Of a stretch of DNA of 39,648 nt, positions 5,059 to 39,451 are shown in pieces (position 1 is the first letter of the stretch; every line of letters starts with the position of its first letter). The notes under the pieces are model-generated. The model had not been told where the DNA came from and made no database searches. It saw nothing but the letters and a program-made list of their open reading frames with translations. A program made the translations under genes and the position numbers. The DNA is taken from IMG/VR virus record IMGVR_UViG_3300045988_050273, positions 1-39,648 of that record. One strand, given 5' to 3'. The stretch comes from a virus.

Positions 5059-7629
5059 ATGGCAAAGAGTAGAAAATATCCATTCGCGACCGCCAAAAAC
5101 GGGAACACGAAAAAATGGAAACACGAAAATTTAAAGTTTCGTGAAATTCAGAAATACCTTAACGTTGACCGACGTATCAACTTGACACTTGACGAATATA
5201 AAAACCTGGAAAAAGACGAGAAAGCGAAAGTTAAAAACAGCAACCCGGCATTTTTAGGCGGATACTTTGAGGGCCGCCGGACGTCGGTTTCTATGAAAAC
5301 CCGATCAATCGTAGCGCTGGACATTGACAAAAAATTCCCTAGCGATTTTAGCGAGTTCATGCAAGAACACAGCCCGTACCCGTACCATATTTACGAAACA
5401 CTAAGCAGCACGAAAAAGCATAGAAAATATCGCGTGCTTTTCTTTCTAAGCGAGGATATCGACGCAGAGGTCTACGAACCAGTAGCGCGACGGATCGCTG
5501 CCACGTTGAGAATTATCGACTTTGTCGATCACACTTGCTACAGAAAGACGCAGCTTATGTACGCGCCTATCTTTTGCAGCGACGTCGTAGAGCCACTTAA
5601 CGAGTTTATCGGCAACCCAAAAGAGCCAAACATTTCAGCAGCCGAGATCATAGCCAGCTTTGAAAATATTTACAACATTGCCGAATGGGACGCCGGAAAA
5701 GACGAGGGCGCGCTAAGAAAGCAAAACAATATGACCCTTATCGACCCACGGGATAAAAAAGGCGTGATCGGCGCTTTTTGTAACTACGTCGGCGATATCC
5801 ACAATGCTATCGCAATGTACGACCTACCTTACCGGCAAGAAAGCGACGACCGCTACAGCTTTACTGGCGGATCAAGTTCTAACGGGTTCGTGGTCTACGA
5901 CGACGCGCAGTGGGGGTATTCAAACCACGAGAGCGACCCGGCTGGTGAGGGCGGCCACGACCTTAATGCTTTTGACCTGGTACGCGTTCACAAGTTCGGC
6001 GACCGTGATCGCAAGGACGGCTACAAGGACCCAACCAGGGCGCCAAGTTATAAGGCAATGGTAGAAATGCTTATGAGTGATAGCGAGTTCGCTAAAATTT
6101 TAGACGAGCAACGCGCCAGCAACGTACTAGACCGAATCTTTGACGCTGAGAGCGACTTTGGCGACGTCTTTGAAGAAGAAGACCAGCCAGACGTAAAACT
6201 CGTTACAAGCGAAACTAAGGCCAGCAAACGACGTATCGTTATTAACGGCAAAAGCTACCGGAAAAACCCGGCCAAAGATAAACGCCTGGGCAAAAAGCTA
6301 CGGAAGTTTGAAACCCGACTAATCAAGTCCGGGGAAAGCGGCCTACCGGTTAACAATAAGACCAACGTGTACCGGGCAGTCAGAGAACACCCGTTACTTG
6401 AGGACCGTATCCTTTACGACAATTTTACGCGACGCTTGACGTTCGTAGGCGTGAAACCATGGCCGACCACCGAGGGCGACGCCTGGAACGAAAACGACGA
6501 CTTTATGCTTGCAACGTTCCTGGAAAGTCACGACCTTAAGGTACCCGTCGACACGGTACGCCTAGCAACGCAGCAAGTATCACAAGAGCCACAGCACCAA
6601 TTTAACAGCCTGGCAAACTTTTTCAAATACCACTTACCGGAATGGGACGGCGTAGAGCGTGTCGAAACAATGTTTACCGACGCTTTCAACGCAGAGGACA
6701 ACGAAACCAATCGAATGATAGCACGTAAGACATTGCTAGCCGGACTTGAAAGAGCACTAAACGACAAGCCCAGCGAGGTCAAGGCGGTCCCAGTCCTACA
6801 GGGCGCGCAGTCAGTCGGTAAATCGACTTTTTGGCGCTTGCTGGCAATTAATCGCGAATGGTTTACGGATAGTAAGATCGACATAGGTAACAAGGACGGC
6901 CTAAGTATCTTAGGCGGCACGTTTATCGTTGAGTTTGGCGAGTTTGCAAGTATCAAGCGCGCCGATCGTGACGAGGTTAAGCAGTTCCTATCAAGTTCAT
7001 ACGACAAGTACAGACCTAGCTACGCGAAAACAGAACGTACCTTTGTCCGTCATAATATCTTTGTTGGGTCCGTGAATGACGAGGAATTTTTGACCGATCC
7101 GACCGGTAACACACGTTTTAAAGTGGTCCACTGCCCAGGGGATAGCACAGGGGCAGCCCGTGTCGTCGAATTAATGACGCCGGACTACGTACTGCAGCTA
7201 TGGGCGGAAGCCATGGCCATGAGAAACGCTGGCGAAACATTCCTATACACGGCAAAAGACGACCTAGCTACAGAGCAGATCGCTAAACGCCACACGAAAG
7301 CCGGTACGTACGACGAACTTATACAAGCCTTTGTCACAGCTAAGAAACCGAATGACTGGCTTATGGCCGTCGACGACTACGAGAAAGTCGACATACTACG
7401 CAAGATCGTATCGGGTTTTTATAAAGACGACGAGCTAACGATTGACCCAGAACCATGGTTCAGCGCCAGGGACTTACGGACAAGCTTAAATATCCGGGAT
7501 AGTGATGAACCTAAGTACCGCCAGCAGATCGCTGCAGCACTACGGGACATACCTGGACTAAAACAACAGACGCGCAAGATCGGCGGCGTGTCAGTGAGGG
7601 GCTATAGCTATATGGCTTTTAACGATTGA
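5059..7629 (+). CDS. Primase-helicase (N-terminal primase-polymerase-like domain plus VirE/D5-type P-loop NTPase)
   Basis: 856 aa. The N-terminal region has IVALDIDKK and RVLFFLSE motifs typical of phage/plasmid primases. Walker A is VLQGAQSVGKSTFWRLL and Walker B-like is GTFIVEFGEF. It occupies the usual position after PolA in the DUF2800/DUF2815 module. Confidence 0.85.
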   Translation: MAKSRKYPFATAKNGNTKKWKHENLKFREIQKYLNVDRRINLTLDEYKNLEKDEKAKVKNSNPAFLGGYFEGRRTSVSMKTRSIVALDIDKKFPSDFSEFMQEHSPYPYHIYETLSSTKKHRKYRVLFFLSEDIDAEVYEPVARRIAATLRIIDFVDHTCYRKTQLMYAPIFCSDVVEPLNEFIGNPKEPNISAAEIIASFENIYNIAEWDAGKDEGALRKQNNMTLIDPRDKKGVIGAFCNYVGDIHNAIAMYDLPYRQESDDRYSFTGGSSSNGFVVYDDAQWGYSNHESDPAGEGGHDLNAFDLVRVHKFGDRDRKDGYKDPTRAPSYKAMVEMLMSDSEFAKILDEQRASNVLDRIFDAESDFGDVFEEEDQPDVKLVTSETKASKRRIVINGKSYRKNPAKDKRLGKKLRKFETRLIKSGESGLPVNNKTNVYRAVREHPLLEDRILYDNFTRRLTFVGVKPWPTTEGDAWNENDDFMLATFLESHDLKVPVDTVRLATQQVSQEPQHQFNSLANFFKYHLPEWDGVERVETMFTDAFNAEDNETNRMIARKTLLAGLERALNDKPSEVKAVPVLQGAQSVGKSTFWRLLAINREWFTDSKIDIGNKDGLSILGGTFIVEFGEFASIKRADRDEVKQFLSSSYDKYRPSYAKTERTFVRHNIFVGSVNDEEFLTDPTGNTRFKVVHCPGDSTGAARVVELMTPDYVLQLWAEAMAMRNAGETFLYTAKDDLATEQIAKRHTKAGTYDELIQAFVTAKKPNDWLMAVDDYEKVDILRKIVSGFYKDDELTIDPEPWFSARDLRTSLNIRDSDEPKYRQQIAAALRDIPGLKQQTRKIGGVSVRGYSYMAFND

Positions 7630-8659: not shown

Positions 8660-8911
8660 ATGGCAAAGCCTACAGAAGCAGTACAAGCAATCATTGACGC
8701 AGAGGTAACGACACGTAAACGACGCAACGGGTACACGATCGAAAAAGGTAGCGGCGTCTTATTCTTTTTAGATGATCGCGAAATCTACCACGGGGTCTAT
8801 TTGAATATCGACGACGGTGAACTAATCGCGCCAGCAAAGTATGACGGTGAGTTACGGACCTTAGAGGACCTAGACGCGTACTACGAAGCTACGAGCAGCG
8901 AGGTAGAATAA
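8660..8911 (+). CDS. Hypothetical protein (83 aa)
   Basis: ATG 8660 follows GGGAGAGGG. The stop overlaps the next start (TAATG). Confidence 0.75.
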   Translation: MAKPTEAVQAIIDAEVTTRKRRNGYTIEKGSGVLFFLDDREIYHGVYLNIDDGELIAPAKYDGELRTLEDLDAYYEATSSEVE

Positions 8912-9156
8912 TGGGTAAGCCTTATTATCTTAGGACTGGCACAGGCGATTTTAACTACGTCAATCACAGACTAAACGACGATAGTTACGTTTGTGCCGGT
9001 CCAGGGTATGAGCGCAAGGGTATCAATACTTGTATCCATACCCGACGAGAGTGGAAGAAGTATTTTCCGGACCTGGTACGGTCGGGCAAACTTGAGCGAG
9101 TAACCGGAAAGGCGGCGGTCGCGTGGCGAAAAAGCCAACGATTAGAGAATCAGTAG
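8911..9156 (+). CDS. Hypothetical protein (81 aa)
   Basis: ATG 8911 is coupled to the upstream stop. I recognise no motif. Confidence 0.7.
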   Translation: MGKPYYLRTGTGDFNYVNHRLNDDSYVCAGPGYERKGINTCIHTRREWKKYFPDLVRSGKLERVTGKAAVAWRKSQRLENQ

Positions 9157-9437
9157 TCGAAAGCTACCTAAGAAAACAGGTCATGCTAGCCGGGGGCCTT
9201 TGCTGGAAGTTTACCAGCCCAGGGACCAACGGCGTACCGGATCGCGTTTGCATTATGAACGGCAATATCGTTTTCGTTGAATTAAAACGGCCAGGCGGTA
9301 AGCCTAGGGCCGATCAGATCGCTATTCATAAACTTATGGCCATTAGGGGCGTAGCGACGCTTGTGATCGACAGTAAGCAACAGGTCGACGAGTTGGTCGC
9401 TATGATGAAGAAGAACCAAGGGACCGGTGGCTGGTGA
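9123..9437 (+). CDS. VRR-NUC domain nuclease
   Basis: ESVVESYLRKQV...GVPDRVCIMNGNIVFVELKRPGGKPRADQIAIHKLM fits the PD...ExK...Q pattern of VRR-NUC. GTG start at 9123. Confidence 0.8.
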   Translation: MAKKPTIRESVVESYLRKQVMLAGGLCWKFTSPGTNGVPDRVCIMNGNIVFVELKRPGGKPRADQIAIHKLMAIRGVATLVIDSKQQVDELVAMMKKNQGTGGW

Positions 9438-9462
9438 TCCATTTTAAAAAGTAGAGAGGACG

Positions 9463-9478
9463 TGTTTCACGTGGAACA
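9463..9478. promoter_or_regulatory. parS site 1 (chromosomal ParB/Spo0J-binding centromere-like sequence)
   Basis: TGTTTCACGTGGAACA. Its reverse complement TGTTCCACGTGAAACA matches the TGTTNCACGTGAAACA consensus at 16 of 16 positions. Confidence 0.85.
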
Positions 9479-9758
9479 AGAGATCAAGAAGTTAACCAAG
9501 GCCGTCGACAAACTGGCCAGGGAATTGAAACGGTACAATGATACCAAGAACACAGGGCCAGCCGGTGAGCCTGGTAGTCTGCCAGACGTCAAGGTAAGTC
9601 TAGGCCAGCGTAATGAGGGACGGACATTCGCAAACATGCTAGCTAGGGCCATGAGCCAGGACGCAGATGAACAAGTACGCGAAAAAATGGAAGAGATCGC
9701 GGCGGCACTGAAAGCCGAGCAAGTTAAAAAATATCGCAGCAGAGGGGGACGAAGCTAA
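9471..9758 (+). CDS. Hypothetical protein (95 aa; 98 aa if started at GTG 9462)
   Basis: The track start GTG 9462 lies only 2 nt after the SD AGAGAGGA (9453..9460). GTG 9471, the centre of the parS palindrome, has more plausible spacing. I recognise no family. Confidence 0.7.
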   Translation: MEQEIKKLTKAVDKLARELKRYNDTKNTGPAGEPGSLPDVKVSLGQRNEGRTFANMLARAMSQDADEQVREKMEEIAAALKAEQVKKYRSRGGRS

Positions 9759-10090
9759 TGGAAAAAGGACTTAAAAGATACCCGAACCAGATACCGACAC
9801 GTATGGCAATGACCGAAAAACCCGTGCCGATCCAAAAGAACCCGGAAAGTTGGGACCGTGCCTATGCTGAAATTAAAGTACGGCCGGAGGTAAAAGAAAA
9901 ACTTTGGGAGGGCACGGACAGGGACCTACTTAAGCAGCAGCTGGCCGTTGGTCTAGGGCTGCAGTTGATCGAAGCTTACGGCATAGAGGAAACCGTCGAC
10001 GAAACCGACGGGCACTATATTTACACCGTGACCGCGCCGTTCGGGCCTTATGTTATGAAACACCACAACTACAAACAAGGAGGGTTTTAA
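9758..10090 (+). CDS. Hypothetical protein, paralogue of 37413..37736
   Basis: KPVPIQKNPESWDRAY...LKQQLAVGLGLQLIEAYGIEE aligns with KEIPIQKNLEDWKILA...KRQLATQIGMAIIDHYGMAK of the 37413 gene. Confidence 0.75.
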   Translation: MEKGLKRYPNQIPTRMAMTEKPVPIQKNPESWDRAYAEIKVRPEVKEKLWEGTDRDLLKQQLAVGLGLQLIEAYGIEETVDETDGHYIYTVTAPFGPYVMKHHNYKQGGF

Positions 10091-10091
10091 A

Positions 10092-10487
10092 ATGATAAAT
10101 TTCAAAGTAACCGGCGTCGATATTCAAGCCGACGTAAACCAGGACGACTTCACAAGCGTCATACTTCACACCTTAGTCACAAGCGACAAGAAACGGGGGT
10201 CCGCCGAGGAATTAGAGCAGATCGCTAGGGCAGTCGGTACGCTATGCCATACTGACCTGGAACCCGGGTACGAGGTAAACCGGGCGCCTTTGGGTCACAC
10301 GGTCGAAGAGGTCAACAGTACGATAAGCTACGCTGAAAGCGCAGTGTATGACAGTGTTATGTTAGAACTTAAAAATGCAGCCCTTAAAGGTGTAGCGCCT
10401 ATCCAAGCCATTAAGAACTTAGGCGGCATTGAGAGCGAGGGCGTTCTGCTGGCGGTACGTGACTGGCTTAACGAGGTGACGCAATGA
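10092..10487 (+). CDS. Hypothetical protein (131 aa)
   Basis: ATG 10092 follows AAGGAGGG. The stop overlaps the next start (ATGA). Confidence 0.75.
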   Translation: MINFKVTGVDIQADVNQDDFTSVILHTLVTSDKKRGSAEELEQIARAVGTLCHTDLEPGYEVNRAPLGHTVEEVNSTISYAESAVYDSVMLELKNAALKGVAPIQAIKNLGGIESEGVLLAVRDWLNEVTQ

Positions 10488-10801
10488 TAATCGCAACCTT
10501 TAAACCAGACGGCTTTTGGGTCAAGGGTCATGCAGAATACGCAGAGATCGGTAGCGATATCGTTTGCGCTGCCGTGTCGTCCCTGGTTACTCACACCGTT
10601 CGGCTCATGGCGCAACAAGGGTACCAATACGAACTCACAGAGGACGTCACAGGCCTTGCAGCCGTTAAGGTATTAGTTACACCGTTTGGGGCTTTAAACG
10701 TCATGAGCGCGCTCATGGATAGCCTAAACGACATTGCAGCTCAGTACCCGGAAAATATCGAGGTCCACGACTTTACGAGAAAAGAGGAAGACAATGAATA
10801 A
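10484..10801 (+). CDS. prp: Prp-like cysteine protease (ribosomal protein L27 N-terminal processing family, DUF464)
   Basis: MIIATFKPDGFWVKGHAEYAEIGSDIVCAAVSSLVTHTV carries the family signature GHA...G.DIVCAxVS (His/Cys dyad). The size (105 aa) is typical. Confidence 0.85.
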   Translation: MIIATFKPDGFWVKGHAEYAEIGSDIVCAAVSSLVTHTVRLMAQQGYQYELTEDVTGLAAVKVLVTPFGALNVMSALMDSLNDIAAQYPENIEVHDFTRKEEDNE

Positions 10802-11114
10802 GATCACGTATGCCACTTGCCAGAAGTGTGGCAAAGCTGCAGAATTTGAGGTAAGCCGCGGCCACGCCGTCGTCAAAGCGACGAACGAACCGGCAGACTA
10901 TCAAAGTACCGAGTGCCCAGAGTGTGGCTATATAACTGTATTCACTGCCACCACTGCCCGGCTTAAACATCAGCTGGCGAAGCAAGGCGCGGCGCGGAAA
11001 CAAAGCCGCGGTAAGCGTAGACTAGCTGATACGATACTCGCAGAGTTGACCGTCGTTTCGTCGTTATTAGAGGATCAACTAAACAAAGAAAAGAGGGAAA
11101 ACAATGATTTATAG
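10794..11114 (+). CDS. Zinc-ribbon protein (106 aa)
   Basis: Track ORF 10734 trimmed to ATG 10794 (AAAGAGGAAG SD; 8-nt overlap with prp). CQKCGK...CPECGY forms a CxxC...CxxC ribbon, followed by a basic C-terminal helix. Confidence 0.75.
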   Translation: MNKITYATCQKCGKAAEFEVSRGHAVVKATNEPADYQSTECPECGYITVFTATTARLKHQLAKQGAARKQSRGKRRLADTILAELTVVSSLLEDQLNKEKRENNDL

Positions 11115-11712
11115 ATTTATGTATCAAAACCCACCTAAAGCCACACGCCATGCTAGTATGGCCGTTGCGGTAACGCCTAAAGACCTATCGATCACCGCGA
11201 GAGCTGCTTATCGGGCGAAGTACGGTACGGACATGGTAGCCGACGGCTATAGTTTCTTTGCTCATAGCGCTGAATCGGGCGACGTATACGCTGGCGATCC
11301 GGGTACCGACGCAGACGGTGGGGTCAAAGGTCCGAAGCCGTCGATCCTAGACCTTATAGCGCCGGCATACAGCAAAAAAGTTGATTATGACCCAAAGAGT
11401 GATACAGTTACTTTTCACGGTGGCAGTGATGAAGAAAGTAGGGCTAAGGAAATCATAAGCGAAGTGTTTGAGGATATCGACAGACCGGATCGCTACCTAC
11501 AGGGTGAGATCGACTTGATCGACGCTGCTTACTTGCTTTTTCCCTGGGATCAGTTTAAAGGGTTTATGAAAATAACGATCATGAGATATACGCTACGGTA
11601 CGAGCACAAGGGCTGGCTTAAGGACCTGGACAAGATCACGGTCTACACGCGACGGCTCAAAGAACTGGAAGTTAAGAACAAAGAACGGGAGGATCGCAAT
11701 AATGAAAAGTAA
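11104..11712 (+). CDS. DUF3310-like protein
   Basis: The C-terminal FMKITIMRYTLRYEHKGWLKDLDKITVYTRRLKE resembles the DUF3310 signature (..KY..R...K....DL.K...Y...L). Confidence 0.55.
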   Translation: MIYRFMYQNPPKATRHASMAVAVTPKDLSITARAAYRAKYGTDMVADGYSFFAHSAESGDVYAGDPGTDADGGVKGPKPSILDLIAPAYSKKVDYDPKSDTVTFHGGSDEESRAKEIISEVFEDIDRPDRYLQGEIDLIDAAYLLFPWDQFKGFMKITIMRYTLRYEHKGWLKDLDKITVYTRRLKELEVKNKEREDRNNEK

Positions 11713-12043
11713 ACCAATGATTTTAGCAGCTGCAGCTTTGAAGACCGTCGTACTATTTACGATCGGCGCTGGGACGGTGGGCATGTATGAAATGGTACAG
11801 CACAGGGACGTCTTGGTTATCTTACTAACGATCGGCGTGGTGGCAACGGGCCTTATTTACCTGGTGGAAGTATCCGGGGCGATCGACAAGTCCAAGCCTA
11901 TCCGGCAGCTTTACGACGTCTACGATCGGGACGGCCGAAAATATACGTACCTGGCCAGCAGCAAAGAGGAAGCAGCCGACGAGTTCCTAAAAAAGAACCC
12001 TTGGGCTGGGATCACTAAGGTCGAGCGAGGTGTCGAAGTATGA
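11702..12043 (+). CDS. Membrane protein (113 aa, two predicted TM helices)
   Basis: Hydrophobic segments ILAAAALKTVVLFTIGAGTVG and VLVILLTIGVVATGLIYLV. Confidence 0.7.
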   Translation: MKSKPMILAAAALKTVVLFTIGAGTVGMYEMVQHRDVLVILLTIGVVATGLIYLVEVSGAIDKSKPIRQLYDVYDRDGRKYTYLASSKEEAADEFLKKNPWAGITKVERGVEV

Positions 12044-12186
12044 ACCAGTACAAAGTAAACTACGTAGACTGGAAAGGCCGCGTTACTTGCATGTACGTCT
12101 TTGCTGATACTGAAATGGAAGCACGGGCGCAAGGAATGGTAGGGCAAGGCGTGTTTAAAATAATCAATGTGGAGGTAGTGAAATGA
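12040..12186 (+). CDS. Small protein (48 aa), tandem paralogue 1; not in the ORF track
   Basis: ATG 12040 (ATGA overlap; GAGG 9 nt upstream). The translation is MNQYKVNYVDWKGRVTCMYVFADTEMEARAQGMVGQGVFKIINVEVVK. It ends in the repeated junction GGAGGTAGTGAAATGA. Confidence 0.6.
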   Translation: MNQYKVNYVDWKGRVTCMYVFADTEMEARAQGMVGQGVFKIINVEVVK

Positions 12187-12335
12187 GAACCTGGGACTAT
12201 TGTGTTACCTATATCGACATGCTAGGCGAACGGACCAAGGCGATCGTAGCGGCCAGCAGTGCCAGAGAAGCAGAACTAGAAATCATTACGGAATGTTACC
12301 CACAAGAAATCATACACACGGAGGTAGTGAAATGA
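12183..12335 (+). CDS. Small protein (50 aa), tandem paralogue 2; not in the ORF track
   Basis: ATG 12183 lies within GGAGGTAGTGAAATGA. The translation is MRTWDYCVTYIDMLGERTKAIVAASSAREAELEIITECYPQEIIHTEVVK. It shares the Y.V.Y.D..G...A....EA...I..EVVK pattern with 12040..12186. Confidence 0.6.
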   Translation: MRTWDYCVTYIDMLGERTKAIVAASSAREAELEIITECYPQEIIHTEVVK

Positions 12336-12508
12336 TTAAAGTAGTTTTCAACATGGCCAGCGGTCAGAAATTAACCGGAGATATGGACGAAGAACAGTAT
12401 CAAGCACTTATTCAGGCAGCCATAGAGGAACCCGTTATCGAGATCAGGGGCGACGGTAAGCGTGTCGTCATATTTACAAAATACATCGAAAGCATTACAA
12501 GGGGGTAG
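12332..12508 (+). CDS. Small protein (58 aa)
   Basis: Track ORF 12200 trimmed to ATG 12332, which follows the second GGAGGTAGTGAAATGA junction. The translation starts MIKVVFNMASGQKLTGDMDEEQYQAL... Confidence 0.65.
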   Translation: MIKVVFNMASGQKLTGDMDEEQYQALIQAAIEEPVIEIRGDGKRVVIFTKYIESITRG

Positions 12509-12512
12509 TGAA

Positions 12513-13013
12513 ATGAGCACACTGTTAAGTCACGCAAAAGAAGAATTGAAACGATACAACAATGGCCTATACGGCGACATGTTAAGCGAAGCAATTTACG
12601 AGATCGTCGAGGTATTCGCAAAGCAAGGTCATAGCGGTTTTAGCGCAGCAATGGCAGCCGAAGCAGCTGGGCGCTTGATGAACTTTAAACCTTTGACACC
12701 ATTGACCGGGGAAGACGACGAGTGGAAAGAGCTGGACTACCTAGGCGGCCATGCACGCTGGCAGAACAAGCGCCACACTTCACTATTCAAGGACGAAGAT
12801 GGTTTTTGCTACGACCTTGACGCCGTAACCTTTGAAGACGTAGACGAGCCTGGTAACTTCTTCACTAATGGCGACCTGGTACGTCGTTACCACCGAGGTA
12901 TTCCGCGGATCAAGTTCCCTTACATGCCAGCAGATAAGCCCGTAGTGTGCAAGATCAAAGAACTTAACGACGGTACGCGTGTGATCGTCGACTATGGGGC
13001 TGGGCGCAGATGA
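12513..13013 (+). CDS. Hypothetical protein (166 aa)
   Basis: Track ORF 12462 trimmed to ATG 12513, which follows the third junction copy GGGGGTAGTGAAATG. Confidence 0.75.
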   Translation: MSTLLSHAKEELKRYNNGLYGDMLSEAIYEIVEVFAKQGHSGFSAAMAAEAAGRLMNFKPLTPLTGEDDEWKELDYLGGHARWQNKRHTSLFKDEDGFCYDLDAVTFEDVDEPGNFFTNGDLVRRYHRGIPRIKFPYMPADKPVVCKIKELNDGTRVIVDYGAGRR

Positions 13014-14686
13014 AGTTCGTCCCACACGACTACCAACAGACCGCGCTTGACTTCATGATGAGCCACAACCGGGCGCTCATTATCCAAGACATGGGACTAG
13101 GTAAAACTGTGACCAGCCTTACCGCTATCAAGAAATCAATGTTTCCCACAGACGGCAGTGAGCCACGCTATCGTCGTCCGCTTATCATTGCGCCTAAGAT
13201 CGTATCGGAAAACACCTGGGCTAACGAGTTAGCGAAATGGGATCACTTGAAGACGCTCAAATATATTGAACTGGACGCCACACGGGTCGACCAGCGGATA
13301 GAACAATTTGACAGAATCGACGACGGCGTCCTAACGATCATGAGCGAAAGCAAAATACAGTGGCTTATTGACACGCTTAACGACGTGACCCAAGACCGTG
13401 AATGGCCTTGGGATTGCGTCTATATCGACGAGATCAGTATTTTCAAAAGCCCAAAGAGCCAGCGCTTTAAGAACCTTAAGAAGAAGCTGCAGAACCGTTG
13501 CGACTACGTCTATGGTTTAACTGGTACGCCAGCGCCGAATGACCTGGCCGACCTTTGGGCGATCATGCTACTAATTGACCGCGGCGCCAGACTAGGTGAT
13601 ACCCGTAAGTATTTCAACAAGACTTACTGCAAAGGGATCACGGTGAAAGTCAACGGTGGGGACCAGGAGATCACGAACTACAAAGTGGCCGACGAAGCCT
13701 ACGACCGGGTACTAGAAGATATCAGCGACATATGTATAGCCATGAGCGCCAAGGATCACCTGGACGATAACCCAGAGATCGAACTACACAAGCACGAAGT
13801 CAAGCTGCCTAAGAAGACGCTGGACTTGATCGACGAGCTGACGGTTAAGCGTGTCCTGGAACTCGCTGGACGAGAAAGCAGCCACAAGGTCGAACGTATT
13901 GAGCGACGGATCGAAAAGTACCAGGCAAGCGGATCGTTAGCAAAGCAGCGACGTATTCCTAAGCTTAGACAAAAGGCCCAACGGATCAAAGACGCCGAGG
14001 GCAGCGGTGATATTGTGTTACGTGCCAGCCATGTATTTAGTCTGATATCCATAGGCCGCCAGATTGCCGGGGGCGCCGTTTACGAGGGCGTACCGGAAAC
14101 CGACGACGAGGACCTTATCGCAGAGTTTTACAAGAACCGACGTGTCATAGAAGACAATGATACAAAGCTTGCTAAAGTCCAGGAGATCGTCGACGGGGTC
14201 AATGACAACGTACTTATCTTTTATCACTATAAACACGAAGCAGATCGGATCAAGTCGCTTTACCCAGACGCTAAGGTCCTTAACACAGCGAACGCTAGAC
14301 GAGTGATACCAGAGTGGAACCGAAAGAGGATACGCGTGTTACTGGCGAACCCGGCGAGTACAAAGTTTGGCTTGAATATGCAAGACGGCGGCCACACGAT
14401 CATATGGTACGGCTTAGACTATTCATTTGAGAAGTACGTCCAATCGAACGCCAGACTGGCACGTCAAGGACAGAAGAACAAGGTCGACGTCCACTTGCTA
14501 CTCGCAGCCGACACGATCGACAGAGATATCGAAGCGGCCATAGTTTCTAAGTCGTCGATAAACGATTTTGTATACGATAGCCTAAGCGCCAGCAAAGAAG
14601 CACGGGCAGAAGTCCAGCGCGCAGCTACGGATCGGATCGGCAAGGCAACCCAGCGTGCTACGGGTCGTCGTGTTATCGTGCAATAA
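13010..14686 (+). CDS. SNF2/DEAD-like superfamily 2 helicase
   Basis: Motif I is IIQDMGLGKTVTSL, motif II is VYIDEISIFK, motif III is GLTGTPAPN, and motif VI is QSNARLARQGQ. Confidence 0.9.
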   Translation: MKFVPHDYQQTALDFMMSHNRALIIQDMGLGKTVTSLTAIKKSMFPTDGSEPRYRRPLIIAPKIVSENTWANELAKWDHLKTLKYIELDATRVDQRIEQFDRIDDGVLTIMSESKIQWLIDTLNDVTQDREWPWDCVYIDEISIFKSPKSQRFKNLKKKLQNRCDYVYGLTGTPAPNDLADLWAIMLLIDRGARLGDTRKYFNKTYCKGITVKVNGGDQEITNYKVADEAYDRVLEDISDICIAMSAKDHLDDNPEIELHKHEVKLPKKTLDLIDELTVKRVLELAGRESSHKVERIERRIEKYQASGSLAKQRRIPKLRQKAQRIKDAEGSGDIVLRASHVFSLISIGRQIAGGAVYEGVPETDDEDLIAEFYKNRRVIEDNDTKLAKVQEIVDGVNDNVLIFYHYKHEADRIKSLYPDAKVLNTANARRVIPEWNRKRIRVLLANPASTKFGLNMQDGGHTIIWYGLDYSFEKYVQSNARLARQGQKNKVDVHLLLAADTIDRDIEAAIVSKSSINDFVYDSLSASKEARAEVQRAATDRIGKATQRATGRRVIVQ

Positions 14687-14711
14687 CCCAGAAAGTCAGT
14701 AATGGTCAAGA

Positions 14712-14972
14712 AAGCTAGTAACCTACCTAGTATACCACCTAGTACACCGCAAAACGTTATCGTACCAGTGCTTTTAACTAGGTACTACTAGGTCATACTA
14801 GCTTTATATAACTTTTAAATTAGGGGTATAGTATGCTATTAGGCATAACAGTATATTAGAATTACAGAATAGTTTAAAAAACCTCGTAATACCTAGTAAC
14901 CTCGTAACCAGCCCGGTATGACAACGTTTCGGCGGTATACGAGCCTGAAACGACCTCGTAACCTCGTATACC
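14712..14972 (+). repeat. Structured ~260-bp non-coding element, copy A (second copy at 24958..25216)
   Basis: It aligns block by block with 24958..25216: AAGCTAGTA, TACCACCTAGTACACCG, ACTAGGT..TACTAGGTCATACTAGCTTTATATAA, TATAGT, TATATTAG, AATAGTTTAAAA, TACCTAGTAACCTCGTAAC, GGTATACGAGCC, GACCTCGTA.CCTCGTA.ACC. It contains at least 8 copies of CCT(A/C)GTA or its complement. Confidence 0.9.
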
Positions 14973-15108: not shown

Positions 15109-15375
15109 GTGGCATTCAGTGAACAATTTGTTTTATCAGACGAGTATATCAACGGGCTACGCGTCCGTGTTACCGTGCAAGACACGGACACCGACACGCT
15201 TAGTTTTGTGTTTGACGGCGGCGAGTTTAATATCAAGCGCGTCGTAATTACGGATCAGTGGGTCAAAATTGAAACAGTTGACCGCGGTACCTATCGGTAC
15301 GCGACCGACAGCGTCCGGGAACTATGGACCCACGACATTATAGAAGTAGAGGAGATCGAAAACAATGAGAATTAA
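15109..15375 (+). CDS. Hypothetical protein (88 aa)
   Basis: GTG 15109 lies 8 nt after AAGGAGGA (15093..15100). It is the first ORF after the long gap. Confidence 0.7.
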   Translation: MAFSEQFVLSDEYINGLRVRVTVQDTDTDTLSFVFDGGEFNIKRVVITDQWVKIETVDRGTYRYATDSVRELWTHDIIEVEEIENNEN

Positions 15376-15655
15376 TATCAACGCAGATCATGAACCGGCA
15401 GCGCCAGCAACCAGAGATCAGAAGATCGAAAAGATTTTCATGGTACGAAAAGGCATAATAGCGTATAATGTTAGACACCTAAGATATAGCTATCGTATGA
15501 GCCGTGACGACGTTGCGGCAAGGTGTGGGTTATCGGCCCACTCAATCGTCCAGGCAGAGCGTGAGGACGTCGACGTTAAGCTTACGACGCTGATTAGGAT
15601 AGCCGAGGGTTTTGGTATTACATTAGAGAAATTAATAGGGGGACGGATAAAATGA
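15365..15655 (+). CDS. XRE-family helix-turn-helix transcriptional regulator
   Basis: LRYSYRMSRDDVAARCGLSAHSIVQAEREDVDVKLTTLIRIAEGFGITLEKLI is a canonical HTH_3/XRE pattern. Confidence 0.8.
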   Translation: MRININADHEPAAPATRDQKIEKIFMVRKGIIAYNVRHLRYSYRMSRDDVAARCGLSAHSIVQAEREDVDVKLTTLIRIAEGFGITLEKLIGGRIK

Positions 15656-17834: not shown

Positions 17835-19493
17835 ATGTTCGACAAGATCAAGGGCGCCATTGGACGCGCCAAAAACTATATAGGGGGTATTTTCGGAATG
17901 AAAGAGCCATTAAATTTAACAACGGTCACGGACCACCCAAAAATCAAGCTGGCGCCGAGTGAACTAATTCGGGTCAGTGAAAACAAAGAGTTTTTTAAAA
18001 ATATCCATGACGACGTCGTTTACTACGACAGCAATAACGACATGTGTACGCGGCCATACAACGCCGTTAACCTAAGTAAGACCGTGAGCCGTAAGCTGGC
18101 CAAGCTGGTATTTAACGAGGGTTTCAACGCCGAACTAAGTACTGAAGACGCGCAAGAGTTTATCGACAGTATCCTCGAAGCCAACCGGTTTAACCAGGTA
18201 TTCGGCGAGGAATTAGAGGGCGGCTATGCAATCAGTGGCCTGGCGATCGTGCCCGTCTTTGACGACATGGCCCGGACAATCAAGTTCGTATACTGCAGCG
18301 CGGACAACTTTATACCATTGGACGGCAATACGAACCTGGTACGATCAGCAGCGATCCTTAACCACTACAGGGACGTCAAAGACGGCGAGATCGTCTACTA
18401 TACCCTCTTTGCTTTCCATGAGCCGTATGGCGTCGTAGGGTCCTTAAACCAGCAAGGCGAACCGGAATATGGTTACGCGATCCACCATGAGCTATATGAA
18501 TCTAAGGACCCAAACACCGTCGGCAAACAAGTCAGTCTTAAGGCTTGTGAAGAAACAGCCCACCTACAGGACCAGGTTCTTATGCCAGGTCGTGGTAAGC
18601 CGCTATTCGTTTATATTAAGCTTGCCGGTAAGAACAACGTTAACTATGGCAGCCCGTTAGGCCTTGGGGTCATTGACAACGCCAAGCGCCAGCTTATTAA
18701 TTTTAACGACAAGTACGACTTGTATATGAACGAGATCGACACGGCAACCCGGCAGCTAGTGGCGTCCAGCGAATTTTTTGAAACTCGCTACGACCCGAAC
18801 GGCCAGCCGCGCCGAGTGTTTAACCCAAGAACGCAGATATGGCAAAGGCTACAAACAGAGGACCCAATTATCCAGGACTTCACGCCAGCGATCCGGGCAA
18901 CCGAGTATATCGAGAGCCTTAACTTTATCCTACGGATCATTGAGCAAAGCACAGGCTTTTCTAGTGGGACATTCAGCTTTGACGGCCAGAGCGTTAAGAC
19001 AGCGACCGAGGTTATCAGCGAGAACACGGACACGTATCAAACACGGGCGGACAACGTGCTTATCGTGGCGACAGCCTTGGGCGACCTATTGGAAAACTGC
19101 CTATACCTGGGCCAATACTACGACGTCTATAATGGACGGATCGACGTAGATATCGTGATCGACTTTGACGACGGTGTATTCACGTCCAAAGCAGAGCGCC
19201 AAAACTACGCCGTAGCTGGGAAGTCTGCTGGCCTACTATCGGTACGGACCGCCATGAAACGCGCATTCGGCTGGGACGACGACCAAGCACAAGCCGAGTA
19301 CGACAAGATACAAGAGGAGAAGACGGCCAGCACGCCGTCAGCATTCCAGCAGTACAGCGAGCAGCTACAGTACGGGCCTAGTGAAATACCAGGGGCCAGT
19401 GACGACGAAGACCTGGAAGACGAAGACGCTGGCAACGCGATCATAACCGAAGAAACTCGACGGGGCAACCGGGCAGCAGCGCGGAACCAATAG
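17835..19493 (+). CDS. Portal protein (SPP1 gp6-like)
   Basis: 552 aa, located after terL. The N-terminal region and acidic C-terminus are typical of Gp6-type portals. Confidence 0.85.
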   Translation: MFDKIKGAIGRAKNYIGGIFGMKEPLNLTTVTDHPKIKLAPSELIRVSENKEFFKNIHDDVVYYDSNNDMCTRPYNAVNLSKTVSRKLAKLVFNEGFNAELSTEDAQEFIDSILEANRFNQVFGEELEGGYAISGLAIVPVFDDMARTIKFVYCSADNFIPLDGNTNLVRSAAILNHYRDVKDGEIVYYTLFAFHEPYGVVGSLNQQGEPEYGYAIHHELYESKDPNTVGKQVSLKACEETAHLQDQVLMPGRGKPLFVYIKLAGKNNVNYGSPLGLGVIDNAKRQLINFNDKYDLYMNEIDTATRQLVASSEFFETRYDPNGQPRRVFNPRTQIWQRLQTEDPIIQDFTPAIRATEYIESLNFILRIIEQSTGFSSGTFSFDGQSVKTATEVISENTDTYQTRADNVLIVATALGDLLENCLYLGQYYDVYNGRIDVDIVIDFDDGVFTSKAERQNYAVAGKSAGLLSVRTAMKRAFGWDDDQAQAEYDKIQEEKTASTPSAFQQYSEQLQYGPSEIPGASDDEDLEDEDAGNAIITEETRRGNRAAARNQ

Positions 19494-19505
19494 CAAAGTA
19501 GGGAG

Positions 19506-19521
19506 TGTTTCACGTGGAACA
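19506..19521. promoter_or_regulatory. parS site 2 (identical to site 1, same orientation)
   Basis: TGTTTCACGTGGAACA lies 12 nt after the portal stop codon. The flanks AAAGTAGnGAG (5') and A (3') are shared with site 1. Confidence 0.85.
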
Positions 19522-20650
19522 ATTAGACTTTTATGGCGCCAAGGTACAAGAGTTATACCAGTACCTTGAAGCGTCACTGTTTGAAATAATCTGCCGCAAT
19601 CTACGACGGCAGCTGGAAAAGCTAGGACCCGATAGCGAGTTATCCATACCAGCGTGGCAGATCGACGCGCTGGCAGATATCGGTCAGTTAAACGAGGACG
19701 CAATCGCTAAGATTGCCGAGGTATCCGGACTAACGCCGGACGTCGTACGCCAGGCGGTCTACAGCGTCGGGTATGACACGATCAAAGAGGTCGACGACCG
19801 ACTAACCTACCGAGAGCGTCCACCAATACCAGCGGCCCTACAGCAGCGCCTAGACGCCTTAGTAAACCAGGCAGTCCTTAACCTTGATAACTTGATTAAT
19901 CAAACGCTGCTAACGTCTAACGGCGTCGTCGGGGTTTACCAGGATATCATAAGCCGCGCTGCTGCCGAAGCGTCAATAGGTTTAACCACGTTAGACCAGG
20001 CGGTCAGTCGGACCGTAAACGAATGGCTAGAAAAAGGCATTCAGTCGGGCTTTGTCGATAAGGGCGGCCGTACGTGGTCGATTGAGAACTACGCCAAGAC
20101 GGCCATTAATTCAACGATCAACAACGCGTACCGGCAAGGGACCCAGGACCGTATGGCCGACTATGGGCTTTATACCATATTAATCGGCTCACACCCACAA
20201 GCCCGGCCAGCGTGTTCGTTGATCCAGGGCCACGTTGTCGACCTAAGACCTATGGCAGCACTGCCACCTGGCTGGAAGTACAAGTCAATCTATGACCCGG
20301 TGTGGAACGCTCACTACAAGGAACCAGGGGGCCACGCTGGCGTTAACTGCCACCACCCACACCTTGTTTTCGATCCGGAATACATGACCAATAACATGAC
20401 CCAATACAACCCGGAAGAAGCCCGGAGAGCCGACGAGATCGAAGCCGGACGCAAGGCCATTGCTAACCGTATCCGGAAGTCCAAAAAGAAACTAATGGCC
20501 TACGAAGCGCTGGGCGATCCAGCAAAAACGGGCTATTATAAGAAATTGCTTAACAAACAGCGTAATGCTATGGTACAATACGTTAAGGACAACGATTTAA
20601 AACGTGAGTACTCACTAGAACGGGTAATCACGCCAGAATCAGACGTCTAA
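19514..20650 (+). CDS. Minor head / head morphogenesis protein (SPP1 gp7 / Mu F-like)
   Basis: It follows the portal gene, as in SPP1-like head modules. The track start GTG 19505 overlaps the SD AGGGAG (19500..19505). GTG 19514, the parS centre, is spaced 8 nt from the SD. Confidence 0.75.
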   Translation: MEQLDFYGAKVQELYQYLEASLFEIICRNLRRQLEKLGPDSELSIPAWQIDALADIGQLNEDAIAKIAEVSGLTPDVVRQAVYSVGYDTIKEVDDRLTYRERPPIPAALQQRLDALVNQAVLNLDNLINQTLLTSNGVVGVYQDIISRAAAEASIGLTTLDQAVSRTVNEWLEKGIQSGFVDKGGRTWSIENYAKTAINSTINNAYRQGTQDRMADYGLYTILIGSHPQARPACSLIQGHVVDLRPMAALPPGWKYKSIYDPVWNAHYKEPGGHAGVNCHHPHLVFDPEYMTNNMTQYNPEEARRADEIEAGRKAIANRIRKSKKKLMAYEALGDPAKTGYYKKLLNKQRNAMVQYVKDNDLKREYSLERVITPESDV

Positions 20651-24955: not shown

Positions 24956-24957
24956 TA

Positions 24958-25216
24958 AAGCTAGTATGCCGGCTCGTCTACCACCTAGTACACCGTGAAA
25001 CGTTGACAGACCGGGCTTGTTACTAGGTGTTACTAGGTCATACTAGCTTTATATAAGATTTAATTTAGGTATAGTGGTCCTAGGGGTACCCTACACTATA
25101 TTAGTATTGTATAATAGTTTAAAAGCGCTCGTAGTACCTAGTAACCTCGTAACTAGACCGGTACGACAGCCTTTTGAGGTATACGAGCCAAAAATGGACC
25201 TCGTACCTCGTACACC
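24958..25216 (+). repeat. Structured ~260-bp non-coding element, copy B
   Basis: It is homologous to 14712..14972. It contains TACTAGG x2 plus TACTAGCTT (25021..25049), TTTATA/TATAGT (25048..25075), an extended -10 TGTATAAT (25108..25115), a CCT(A/C)GTA array (25127..25212) and a hairpin (25178..25216) that abuts the SD of the next gene. Confidence 0.9.
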
Positions 25217-30757: not shown

Positions 30758-33700
30758 TGGACTTTTATTTAACAGACCGAAGATTTAACCTTTTAGGCGT
30801 AGTTTCGACGAGTTCCGAAGCTACGCTGCAAATGGTTAACGAAACCGACACGCAAAGCATAGAGAACGCAGCCCGTGAGTTTGAGGGAACTATCTTATTC
30901 CCTACGCGACTATCAACTAAGATTAAGACGCTGGCAGCTTATGGCAATTATCTGCTATACAAGGACGAGCAAGGGAAATCAGTTTTCATGACGATCATGG
31001 AGATCGAACATGACCCGTTAAACGGCACACACTTTATACGTGCCGAAGACGCTGGCATGGACTTATTAAATGGCTACGTCGGACCTTACAAAGCAACCAA
31101 GGCAATGACATTCAAACAATACTTTGACGTTTTCGCCAAAGGTACCGGGTTTACGATCGGGATCAACGAAATCACGGACCTATCGCGTACCCTCGAATGG
31201 GAAAGCGAAGAGCAGACGATCCTTGCCAGAATGTTATCCGTGGCAACGCAGTTCGACAATGCAGAAATAGCATTCAGTTTCACGATAACCGGTACGCAAG
31301 TGGTCCAGCGGCGCCTTGACGTTATGAGAAAACGCGGCGCAGACAATCGGATCATTTTATATGCTAACCGTGACATTAACAACATAGTAACCAAAGGGAA
31401 CATATACGACCTAGCTACAGCGCTAGAAGTGTCGGGCGGTGAGATCGACGGCGTACCAGTTACGCTTAAGGGCTACAGCTACACGGACCCCACGGGTCGT
31501 TTTGAATTGGACCCAGCAACGGGTATCCTTTACGACACGGAAAGCGTGAAAGTTTGGTCGCGTCTTTTGAGCAACGACAACCCGAACCCAGAGAACGGTT
31601 ACATCAAGCGCCTTAAGTCGTATGAAACAACGAACAAAAAGACTTTACTTGATAACGCGATCCGCGAACTAACGAAAGTAAGCCAGCCGATTGTCAACTA
31701 TGAAACCGACATAAGCAAGCTGCCGGATAACGTACTTATCGGCGACACGGTTTACCTATCCGACGAAAATCAAGAGTTATATTTATCGGCCCGAGTTTTA
31801 ACCCTGGACCGTTGCTACAGCGAAGAAACCTACACGGCAACCCTGGGGGACTATTTGATCGTAGAGGACGGCCTGGCCTTGTCACTCAAAGAGATCGCAG
31901 CGCAGCTTAAAGCCGAAACGACGTACTTATGGATACGGTACGCCGACGACGATCAAGGTAGCGGCATGAGCCCAAGCCCTAGCGGCAAAGAGTATATAGC
32001 AATCAAAAGCGTCGTAGGCGTACCAACTGCCAGCGACGACCCGGACGACTATATCGGCCTTTGGCAGAAGTTTGTAGGGGATCAAGGTATACCAGGGCCG
32101 CAAGGTCCGAACGGGGCTACGACGTACACCTGGTTAAAATACGCCGACGACGATCAAGGTAGCGGCATGAGCGACGACCCAGCTGGCAAAATGTATATAG
32201 GGCTAGCAACCAACAAAACGACGCCGACCGAAAGCACGAACCCGGCAGACTATAAGTGGCAGCTAGTCAAAGGTGAGGACGGCCAAGATGCACACGTTTA
32301 CCAGGCCTACGCCTTTGACGAAACCGGTACGGATCGCTTTACGATACCTTACCCGAACGAAAATATAATCTTAAATTCTCAATTTAAGAATGGTACGACG
32401 GGTTGGCTAACTGGTAATGCAAGTGTGGAAGTTGACACCACTAATAAGCTTGATGGGCTTAACTCTATGAAAGTAGGCCTTAACGCTGATAGTACCGCCG
32501 GCACAGCGTCAAGGGCATTTTACAGATATAATGGCGAGACCGGTCTAGTACCGTCCAGCGGATCGTTATGGCTAAAAGCCGATAAGGACGTAAAAATAGG
32601 TATAAGAACCGATGGCGGTACTAAAACAGGTAGCTACAATGTAACTACAGAGTGGCAGCGGTTCGAGATACCTAAAGACGGCTACATGGTATTGATATGG
32701 GCATTTAGCTCATGTGTATTATGGGTAGCAAAGCCCAAAGTAGAGAATAGTTCGGTAACAACCATTTACACACCAGCGCCAAGCGAAGACTTTGCCAACG
32801 CTTACCCTACTTTCATGGGGACCTATGCAACGTTCGACGACACGCAAAGCACAGACCCAGCAGACTACACTTGGGCCAGAATGCTAGGTAATTCCGGGGT
32901 CGGTATCAAGACGACGGTCGTAGAATATGCCGTCGGTACCAGCGCCACTACAGCGCCGACTAGCGGCTGGCAAGCGACACCGCCAGCAGTTGGGACTAAC
33001 CAGTACCTATGGACCCGGATCACTTTGACCTATGACGACGAGAGCGTCGTTACAAGCTATAGCGTGGGCGCCAGAGGGGCGCAAGGTCCACAAGGTCCGA
33101 CAGGTCCAAGCGGTAACGGGATCGACACCAGCGTCGTAACATACGCAGCTGGGACCACAGGGACAACAGCGCCAGCTACAGGGTGGCAAGCAACGCCGCC
33201 AACCGTGGCAGCGAACCAATTCCTTTGGACAAAGATCGTACTTACCTATACCGACGGATCAAGTACCACGTCGTACGCCGTTGGTAAAATGGGGGCACAA
33301 GGTCCACAAGGGGCCAAAGGTGACACCGGACCCCAGGGGCCTACAGGTCCGACGGGTAACGGGATCAGCAGCAGTACGATCAGCTACGCGGCTAGCACGT
33401 CGGGGACAACGGCGCCAAGTACAGGCTGGCAAGGAACACCACCGACAGTTGCGGCTAACTCTTATCTTTGGACCCGTGTGATTATAAATTACACGGACGG
33501 AAGCAGCAGCACGTCGTACAGCGTCGGTAAAATGGGGGCACAAGGCCCACAAGGTAATGCTGGGGCACAAGGTCCACAAGGGCCAACTGGTAACGGGATC
33601 GACACCAGCGTCGTAACATACGCGGCAAGTGCTAGCGGTACGACGGCGCCAAGTACAGGTTGGGCTACCACGCCACCAACCGTGGCTGCAAACCAATTTC

Positions 33701-35253
33701 TTTGGACCAAGGTAGTAATAACTTACACCAACGGGACAAGTACAACCGCGTACAGCGTCGGTAAAATGGGGGCACAAGGTCCACAGGGGGCCAAAGGTGA
33801 CACGGGACCCCAAGGGCCAACAGGTCCGACGGGTAACGGGATAGCAAACAGTACGATCCACTATGCAGCCAGCACGTCGGGGACCACGGCGCCAAGTACA
33901 GGCTGGCAAACTACGCCGCCGACCGTTGCTGCCAATTCGTTCCTATGGACCCGAGTAGTTATTAACTACACCGACGGCACAAGTTCGACGTCGTACAGCG
34001 TCGGTAAAATGGGGGCACAAGGCCCACAAGGTAATGCCGGGGCACAAGGTCCACAAGGGCCAACAGGTAACGGTATCAGCAGCAGCGCCGTCAATTATGC
34101 AGCAAGTGCTAGCGGTACGACGGCACCAACTAGCGGCTGGGCTACAACGCCACCGACCGTGGCAGCTAACCAATTCTTATGGACCCGAGTAATAATCACT
34201 TACACCAATGGGAACACGACAACCGCGTACAGCGTCGGTAAAATGGGGGCACAGGGTCCAAAAGGCGACACCGGGGCACAGGGTCCGAAAGGGCCACAAG
34301 GTCCACAGGGGCCGCAAGGTATCCAGGGCGTAGCCTACTTAAGCCCAACGCAGCCAAGCACGACGCAAAACGGGTCACAGTGGTTTAAAACGGTATCGAC
34401 GACTAACCGGACAGTAACGGACATATATACGTATGTTACCGGGTCTGGTTGGGTCAAGACACCACTGGCAGCTGGTACTTTGGCCGTGACGTCGATCAGT
34501 GCAATAAGCGCCAACCTGGGTGACATAACAGCCGGTACGATTAACGGGGTGTCGATCACAGGGGCCGGGCTTTATTCAGACTTTGACCGGGCCAATGTAA
34601 GCGGTGGGACAGTGTGGACTAAGGGAAAACTGACCATGGCAAACGGTAGGTTTAGAAATGACTTTCAAGAGTATACAAAATCTAGTGGAACAGTAACCCG
34701 GAACGGTTTTTCGGAACTTACCCACGAAGCGCTAACCATGGCCAGTTTTAATGGTACCCAGACGACCACAGTGGACCGATATCTGCAGATTAACCCGTTC
34801 AGGATTAACATGATAGACAGCCAAGGGCGCGGCGGTAACTTGACTTTCCAGGACTTGTACAGCCTAGGCAAGATAGGCATTCCGGCCGGAAGTGGCTGGC
34901 GGCAATATAATACAAGTTCTAGTTCGGGTAACTTCCCAAGTGCTACCAGGGTCGGCCGTGTGGTACAGCTTGCCGGGGCCTTTGCGCCTAACGCAGCGAA
35001 GCCGTCCGGTACCGAGAACGAGGTCATGGGAACACTGCCCGTGGGCTACCGACCAGATTCGGACTGTAACTTTATCTGCCAGGGAACCAGGGCGAACATA
35101 TATTTATTAGTCGTAAAGGCAAATGGGCAACTAATGTTTAACCGTTACCGCGGCGATACTGGATCAAGCAACAACTATAAATTTGACTACAAGGACTGTA
35201 CAGAGGGCGCTTGGATCAACATAGCTTGTACCTTTGCTGCCGCAGACGTATAG
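30757..35253 (+). CDS. Tail-associated / receptor-binding fibre protein (Tal N-terminal domain, collagen-like repeats, repeated beta-rich modules)
   Basis: Track ORF 30724 trimmed to ATG 30757 (TAATG overlap; GAGAGGGG SD). The N-terminus [16 protein letters not shown] is typical of phage minor structural / Tal proteins. G-X-Y runs and six repeated modules span 32887..34329. Confidence 0.85.
32887..34329 (+). repeat. In-frame repeat array inside the fibre gene (six ~62-81 aa modules separated by collagen-like G-X-Y runs)
   Basis: Module starts are at 32887, 33076, 33292, 33535, 33769 and 34012, with a final G-X-Y run at 34246..34329. The block 33292..33768 is near-duplicated at 33769..34245 (477-bp period). 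Confidence 0.9.
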
Positions 35254-39214: not shown

Positions 39215-39451
39215 TTGTATGAATATATTGACTTAGAGCAGTTACGGATCGACGCCGCGGCCAGCGGTTACACGCAGCAGATCATTGCAGAGCGCGCCGG
39301 TATCCACCAGAGCAACGTGTCACGCTTCCTAAACGGTGAGCGCAGTTTATCATTTTTTTCGTACGTGAACCTGGTTAAGGCGATCGACGAAGACCCTAAA
39401 AAATATTTGACAGAAAAAGGCAAAAAAGTCTTTACTTTAGAATTAGAGTAG
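39215..39451 (+). CDS. Small helix-turn-helix DNA-binding protein (78 aa)
   Basis: TQQIIAERAGIHQSNVSRFLNGERS is an XRE/Cro-like HTH. TTG start at 39215 follows GGGGG. It is the last gene of the P3 operon and lies 13 nt upstream of an operator palindrome. Confidence 0.7.
   Translation: MYEYIDLEQLRIDAAASGYTQQIIAERAGIHQSNVSRFLNGERSLSFFSYVNLVKAIDEDPKKYLTEKGKKVFTLELE

Follow-up and report, generated by a model that had tools for sequence, protein, structure and literature searches.

Why would a small tailed phage that encodes no partition protein of its own carry two perfect copies of parS – the site at which bacterial chromosomes load the partition protein ParB (Spo0J) – and why should each copy be centred on the start codon of a gene? 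The question is raised by IMG/VR virus record IMGVR_UViG_3300045988_050273, analysed here over its whole stretch of 39,648 nucleotides (positions 1 to 39,648; hereafter the window). Host-type parS on a phage is already known from phi29: it has five parS sites, and host Spo0J has been linked to the transport of its genome into the prespore (Meijer et al. 2005, as described in PMC2731898). What is new at this locus is the apparently non-sporulating host, the fusion of exact consensus sites to translation-initiation regions, and the conservation of the sites at the level of a clade that has a parS-free sister clade.

Here, we compare the two sites with their counterparts in related phages and in other viral contigs, and weigh the explanations that have been or could be offered for them. 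We lean towards reading both 16-mers as functional loading sites for the chromosomal ParB of the host on a phage that lacks ParB, a reading drawn from sequence comparison; the specific benefit to the phage is much less certain than the function of the sites.

Results

Two exact parS sites at the starts of two unrelated genes

The 16-mer TGTTTCACGTGGAACA occurs twice on the plus strand of the window, at 9463–9478 (site 1) and 19506–19521 (site 2), in the same orientation and 10,043 bp apart. On the minus strand both sites read TGTTCCACGTGAAACA, which is the parS inside Bacillus subtilis parB and the 'consensus parS' of the literature, and both match the chromosomal-type consensus TGTTNCACGTGAAACA at 16 of 16 positions. 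No other match, exact or degenerate, was found on either strand of the window with up to three mismatches allowed (0.28 expected by chance), and the observed count was not equalled in any of 100 shuffles.

The identity of the two sites continues upstream of parS. The plus-strand flank of site 1 (9448–9462) consists of AAAGTAGAGAG plus GACG and that of site 2 (19495–19505) of AAAGTAGGGAG, which abuts parS; each includes a Shine-Dalgarno sequence (SD), and at both sites an A follows the 16-mer, giving the order flank-GACG-parS-A at site 1 and flank-parS-A at site 2. Because the 11-mer AAAGTAGRGAG is confined to these two flanks within the window, and the ribosome-binding sites of the other genes (about 48) differ from it, the shared flank is more than the general SD consensus of the phage. 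The common cassette is 27–31 nt long and takes in the SD, the spacer, the start codon and the first codons.

At the centre of each palindrome stands a GTG, at 9471 and 19514, and several lines of evidence point to these as the true start codons. The open reading frame (ORF) starts assigned mechanically, GTG 9462 and GTG 19505, lie 0–2 nt from the SD, as against 8–11 nt for the central GTGs. Public gene calls begin at the central GTGs and yield proteins of 95 and 378 amino acids (aa), with one NCBI third-party-annotation (TPA) record giving a longer, 98-aa form of the site-1 protein. The N-termini of the minor-head proteins of the sister clade (MKQLTFY, MQLDFH and (V/M)KQLDFY) align with MEQLDFY read from 19514, and homologues of the site-1 protein begin MEQEIK/R in 33 cases out of 33. 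The two downstream proteins are unrelated (BLASTP E = 0.19), and the two site sequences part directly after codon 3 (CAA).

On these points the initial annotation of the window had read the sequence correctly: it had taken the 16-mers for true parS consensus sites, placed the exact second copy 10,043 bp downstream on the same strand, seen that the identity reaches into the flanks, preferred the central GTGs as starts, and noted that the proteins diverge after Met-Glu-Gln.

Both genes lie on the plus strand. Site 1 opens a gene of unassigned function (9471–9758), separated by a gap of 33 nt from the Endonuclease/Holliday-junction-resolvase-like gene upstream (9123–9437, plus strand). Site 2 opens the gene for the minor head or minor capsid protein (Phage_min_cap2; 19514–20650), and the SPP1-type portal gene (17835–19493, plus strand) ends with a stop codon at 19491–19493, 12 nt before parS and 20 nt before the central GTG. 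The 95-aa site-1 protein matched no known family; its N-terminal 24 residues are invariant and are followed by a collagen-like Gly-X-Y stretch that differs in length among relatives (GPAGEPG, GPAGVDGSAGI, GPAGDPGRPGEPGK).

Conservation of the sites among relatives

The relatives compared here all come from Logan and ENA assemblies; searches by protein or alignment of IMG/VR and JGI metagenomes returned none. The lineages fetched are 95% (L133), 93% (L136), 91% (L137), 85% (L140) and 80% (L138) identical in nucleotide sequence to the window, and the number of independent lineages behind the comparisons that follow is small. Both 16-mers are exact in every fetched clade member wherever the region is present (site 1 in L127, L128, L133–L138 and L140; site 2 in L121–L123, L127, L133, L136 and L138), the sole exception being site 1 of L139, TGTTTAACGTGGAACA, in which one base is changed (the variant begins TGTTTAAC). 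The spacing between the sites ranges from 9,720 to 10,147 bp.

The surrounding sequence is far more variable. Third-codon positions of codons 4–30 vary at 16 of 27 positions downstream of site 1 and at 15 of 27 downstream of site 2 (55–59%, or about 57%), and the SD of site 1 itself takes the forms AGAGAGG, AGAAAGG and AGAGGGG. If the eight spacer bases and the wobble position of GAA are counted as free to change – nine positions per site, 18 in all – one has changed where about 10 would be expected, which by our own arithmetic corresponds to a rough binomial P of about 6 x 10^-6. Alignment of the relatives at both junctions thereby bears out the proposal in the initial annotation that conservation lies at the level of nucleotides: the 16-mer is kept, while the SD of site 1 and its surroundings vary.

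Comparison with the most divergent relative, L138, gives a similar picture. Site 2 lies roughly at the centre of a 60-nt block (19483–19542, plus strand) that is identical in the two phages; of the 890 identical runs in the alignment (7.7 kb, 83% identity), only three are longer. When 29 gene starts were scored, 0 of 41 columns were variable only at site 2 and at 5059, which belongs to the well-conserved replication module; among the 19 starts from 9758 onward, for which the two most divergent lineages are comparable, site 2 alone has this value. At site 1 a single column of 41 is variable, as against 21–28 at its downstream neighbours, and the site is kept although the upstream gene differs in L138. 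In L139 and L140 a gene has been inserted upstream, and the conserved unit is reduced to TAGAG(A/G)GGACG plus the 16-mer (with its one mismatch in L139). The parS sequence thus appears to be under purifying selection in these relatives, with the constraint on translation initiation overlapping the site.

The ORF inserted upstream of site 1 codes for 67 aa in L140 (8822–9025) and, truncated, for 69 aa in L139 (1–210). It stands between the endonuclease gene and the parS-bearing gene and takes over the AAAAAGTAGAAAGG ribosome-binding site; since an extra ORF has entered in both lineages, the junction just upstream of site 1 proves to be a hot spot for gene insertion.

A sister clade without parS

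The nearest phage in GenBank is Enterococcus phage EC99P2, whose host is Enterococcus_D sp002850555 from human faeces. It is syntenic with the window gene for gene, with 50–75% aa identity for most core replication and head genes and 29–88% overall, and lacks the 95-aa gene. No parS was found in EC99P2 with up to three mismatches allowed, no match to the consensus pattern in L124–L126, and no parS in Enterococcus phage 4995_2. The minor-head proteins of EC99P2 and L124–L126 are 54–58% identical to that of the window, and the portal and minor-head genes of the sister clade overlap or lie 6 nt apart. Because the sister clade is without parS, the sites would have been gained in the ancestor of one clade. 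Searches of GenBank phages with both parS regions (megablast) and with the site-1 protein (tblastn) gave no match.

A phage without ParB and its probable host

Pfam and PHROGs scans, which covered most of the called ORFs, found no ParA, ParB or ParBc domain and likewise no integrase; for a small number of structural ORFs (about 22.6–26.4 kb) and the tape-measure gene, which lay outside them, homologues in close relatives carry precomputed structural Pfam labels. Every ORF of at least 300 aa is explained by a function other than partition. The parA and parB pair that a self-contained ParABS cassette has on the same replicon, as in P1, N15 and plasmids, was not found here. Because the phage has no ParB of its own, its sites would be read by the ParB of the host.

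That host is most likely Enterococcus, a non-sporulating genus, given the synteny with EC99P2 and the named homologues of the lysin catalytic domain, which come from Enterococcus species in nearly all cases and from Tetragenococcus in one. Enterococci reportedly carry parAB and consensus parS.

parS in other viral contigs

The exact parS 16-mer is present in at least 120 IMG/VR contigs, a set that includes plasmid-like and possibly chromosomal pieces, compared with 6 for a composition-matched scrambled 16-mer with the same central 8 bases (TTGTTCACGTGGACAA). Host-type parS is therefore found on viral or virus-like contigs far above chance, with an enrichment of at least 20-fold. There is no general rule that places it on start codons: strand-tests of 150 exact sites from other viral contigs (300 in all) showed a start at the central GTG preceded by an SD in 8 cases, about the number given by a rough chance estimate.

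Two further groups of sites came to light among these contigs. Eight contigs of IMG/VR sample 3300045988 (L036, L057, L007, L044, L068, L076, L081 and L088), most of them about 11 kb long, form a family with a terminal segment in common that holds either a single exact parS or two of them 42 bp apart. L036 and L057 have the pair at both ends in inverted orientation, and the contigs resemble small linear plasmid-like or phage-like elements whose terminal inverted repeats carry centromeres. The 116,662-bp IMG/VR contig L054 carries eleven exact 16-mers and one further consensus parS within about 5 kb (8906–13878), mostly flanked by GA...T, a dense centromere array on a contig labelled viral.

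Origin of the sites and their placement on start codons

Duplication of an SD-plus-parS cassette, as first suggested in the initial annotation, is the simplest origin for the two sites: a unit of SD, parS and start present at one gene would have been duplicated at the other, or both genes would have received it from outside. In the sister clade the portal and minor-head genes leave little or no room between them, and in the parS clade they are separated by the 20-nt spacer with the same AAAGTAGRGAG flank as site 1. The start of the minor-head gene in the sister clade, GTG-AAG-CAG in L126, already resembles the right half of parS (GTGAAACA).

No donor of the cassette was found. The pattern AGTAGRGAG-N0-4-parS-A has no match in IMG/VR or in JGI metagenomes and a single one in 185,579 species genomes. 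This lies at 7392–7417 of JAIRRJ010000011.1 (L132), a metagenome-assembled genome of the spirochaete Treponema sp., where AGTAGGGAG is followed by parS and an A between genes; by our own estimate it is most likely a chromosomal parS whose flank matches by chance.

The placement on start codons could then be a by-product of cassette copying in a genome that is 94% coding. The left half-site would fit the spacer between SD and start codon, the CAC|GTG centre would supply the GTG start, and GAA-CA(A) would encode Glu-Gln; one cassette of ribosome-binding site plus parS was most likely copied onto a second gene. Shortage of non-coding DNA combined with copying of the cassette is the most likely reason for the placement, rather than a role in controlling transcription or translation.

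Alternative explanations

The alternative that survives best, although we consider it unlikely, is that the sites are neutral passengers, captured or copied at a recombination junction and retained as an SD, a start codon and a patch of homology, with no benefit from ParB. Homology among relatives does break at or near the cassette: the context upstream of site 1 differs in L138 and holds the inserted gene in L139 and L140, and the 3′ ends of the portal gene differ in L136 and L138. The sister clade, moreover, manages without parS. At the free spacer positions of the 16-mers, however, a single change in 18 stands against synonymous variation of about 57% nearby, and those alignments do show variation at the translation-initiation regions of other genes. 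The general enrichment of exact parS in viral contigs, at least 20-fold, also speaks against a passenger.

The initial annotation had gone further and placed ParB over two translation or transcription entry points. As a means of control, host ParB bound there would act mainly as a roadblock or silencer tuning the 95-aa gene, the minor-head gene and the genes downstream. Plasmid ParBs and some chromosomal ones can silence neighbouring promoters. Transcriptional effects of ParB have been reported (PMC5521831, PMC4010829), and each site falls on a gene start, with the orientation the same at both. This part of the initial annotation did not hold up, and we regard such control as improbable. On the coding strand, promoter and terminator prediction gave nothing at either site, and each gene sits within a long run of same-strand genes, with gaps of 33 and 20 nt; translation, for its part, starts on mRNA, and ParB binds double-stranded DNA. 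A parS inside a transcribed gene is normal, as in B. subtilis, where the site lies within the expressed parB gene itself. parS at start codons is not enriched beyond the rough chance estimate in other viral contigs, the hairpin described below is weak, and the sister clade needs no parS to express this minor-head gene.

A third explanation treats the 27–31-nt cassette as an RNA element, a translational operator or hairpin that co-regulates the two genes and whose identity to parS is incidental. In its favour, the shared sequence runs from the SD through the spacer and start codon into the first codons, conservation reaches past the 16-mer, and both mRNAs are predicted to form a 6-bp hairpin whose loop holds the start codon. 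That hairpin, however, is weak (-4.3 to -5.7 kcal/mol in short segments) and folds no better than shuffled sequence (z from +0.2 to -1.1); no Rfam family matched, and the candidate was rejected as an RNA structure. The 16-mer, being invariant, offers no covariation to assess. A match of 16 out of 16 to parS, occurring twice, cannot be incidental when about 2 x 10^-5 occurrences are expected per genome for a given 16-mer, and it is the SD of site 1 that varies among relatives while the 16-mer does not. We give the idea little credence.

Operators for a phage-encoded DNA-binding protein that resemble parS by chance are very improbable: the phage does encode two small helix-turn-helix (HTH) proteins of the Xre type (15365–15655 and 39215–39451), and a 16-bp near-palindrome is typical of operators, but neither HTH gene has a copy or half-site nearby, the large intergenic regions hold none, and the exact identity to the host consensus would be left unexplained. 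Avoidance or excess of CACGTG as a restriction site was likewise discarded, 5 sites against about 9 expected being unremarkable.

Genome organization and other features

The first and last 119 bases of the window are identical (1–119 and 39530–39648), giving a circular assembly with a true length of 39,529 bp, and what the window holds is the entire circular genome (39.5 kb) of a siphovirus known from metagenomes. All genes share one strand, and coding sequence makes up about 94% of the genome. The replication module comprises a DUF2800 nuclease, an Enc34-type single-stranded-DNA-binding protein, a family-A DNA polymerase, a VapE-type primase/helicase and an SNF2 helicase. The packaging and head genes encode the small and large terminase subunits, the SPP1-type portal, the minor head protein, a scaffold and the major capsid protein, and there are siphovirus tail genes together with an XhlA-like protein, a Dp-1-type holin and a GH25 lysin. 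The phage recurs in many metagenome assemblies and in NCBI TPA records named 'Caudoviricetes sp.'. In five protein clusters of 36–52 member sequences each, all listed members are on contigs of at most 39,648 bp, and for this reason the phage has not been seen integrated.

Several other features of the genome deserve mention. The ORF at 12513–13013 matches Pfam Tad3, a type I Thoeris inhibitor (E = 9e-33), is kept in EC99P2 and the relatives, and is probably an anti-defence gene. The gene for the 1,499-aa tail fibre contains about five tandem repeats of 234–243 nt (33058–34342) that encode collagen triple-helix motifs. An intergenic element of about 260 nt is present in two copies, at 14711–14972 and 24957–25216, which are 78–87% identical and 10,245 bp apart; the first fills the large non-coding gap ahead of the packaging operon (gene start 15109) and the second that ahead of the tail operon (25234). 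The element has short internal repeats (CTAGTA..., CCTCGTAACCTCGTA) and an inverted pair, GGTATACGAG...CTCGTATACC, is kept in relatives, and gave no Rfam match; the two copies are probably paired regulatory or promoter regions.

Discussion

If the two 16-mers are indeed loading sites for host ParB, what is known of ParB biochemistry suggests how they would act. Host ParB would nucleate at the two sites, close as a cytidine triphosphate (CTP) clamp and spread, and with sites 10 kb apart such spreading would cover much of the 39.5-kb genome. Phage DNA coated in this way could be coupled to the ParA and SMC segregation machinery of the host, so that, whenever lysis is delayed in a carrier state or pseudolysogeny, a non-integrated genome would be kept in position and inherited by the daughter cells; this would be the most likely pay-off. 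A secondary effect may be that replicating phage DNA draws ParB off the host origin. In B. subtilis, a multicopy plasmid with a single additional parS changes the distribution of ParB and interferes with ParB foci and with the separation and segregation of origins. Carrier states of non-integrating phages appear common in isolate genomes (PMC12768965).

We tentatively suggest, as a possibility that goes well beyond the function of the sites, that this non-integrating gut phage of Enterococcus is a 'centromere-only' parasite of host segregation: a ParB-loaded episome that is actively partitioned, or held at the origin and SMC loading zone, and so persists through divisions in a carrier state. 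Such a strategy would be the spore-independent counterpart of that of phi29, and it could be widespread, given the excess of parS in viral contigs.

Several observations weigh against host ParB loading. The sites are dispensable for this type of phage, the closest relatives (EC99P2, L124–L126 and 4995_2) being without parS. Conservation extends over more than the 16 bp of parS, and the ordinary constraint on translation initiation therefore has a share in it. Among the genes identified there is no module – repressor, lysogeny or plasmid maintenance – from which one would predict a persistent state. The host, too, is deduced from the synteny with EC99P2 and the homologues of the lysin. Finally, the spore benefit of phi29 does not carry over: EC99P2 infects Enterococcus_D and the lysin homologues point the same way, to a host that does not form spores, and Spo0A boxes (TGTCGAA) show no excess, with 6 found against 5.1 expected and all six inside genes.

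Piracy of the host's centromere reader would offer a simple, testable mechanism by which 'lytic' phages could persist in dividing bacteria without integration. The parS-free sister clade, which includes the cultured phage EC99P2, is a natural control. The two sites also illustrate that a ribosome-binding site and start codon can accommodate a protein-binding site of 16 bp, which matters for the annotation of start codons and for the engineering of compact genomes.

Comparison with known systems

The closest parallel is phi29, which is likewise a non-integrating phage without ParB that carries scattered parS sites of the host type, read there by host Spo0J as is proposed here. The two differ in the number of sites (five in phi29, two here) and in the host: that of phi29 sporulates, and the benefit is transport into the prespore, with Spo0A boxes at early and late promoters, whereas the probable host here is Enterococcus. 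In the present phage, moreover, both sites are exact consensus and are built into translation-initiation regions.

With the chromosomal ParABS systems of Firmicutes (in B. subtilis parS, Spo0J and Soj, with SMC loading) the phage shares the identical 16-bp sequence, and a site inside a transcribed gene is normal in those systems too. The difference is one of setting, the sites here being on a 39.5-kb phage genome and not near oriC, on a replicon on which no parA or parB was found.

Plasmid-prophages such as P1 (ParABS) and N15 (SopABC) also have centromere sites on a phage genome, and in N15 these are dispersed among phage genes, lie in promoter regions and influence expression. P1 and N15, however, are proven plasmid prophages with their own ParA and ParB and their own site specificity, whereas no partition protein, repressor module or plasmid state is documented for the phage described here.

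A last comparison is with elements that hijack a centromere system. A single parS is said to stabilise a plasmid in B. subtilis, and the genomic island SGI1 uses the parABS of an IncC plasmid (PMC10954446). Those cases are plasmids and genomic islands for which the dependence has been demonstrated by experiment, and the present one is a tailed phage known from its sequence; in both, the mobile element relies – or, for this phage, would rely – on partition proteins encoded elsewhere in the cell.

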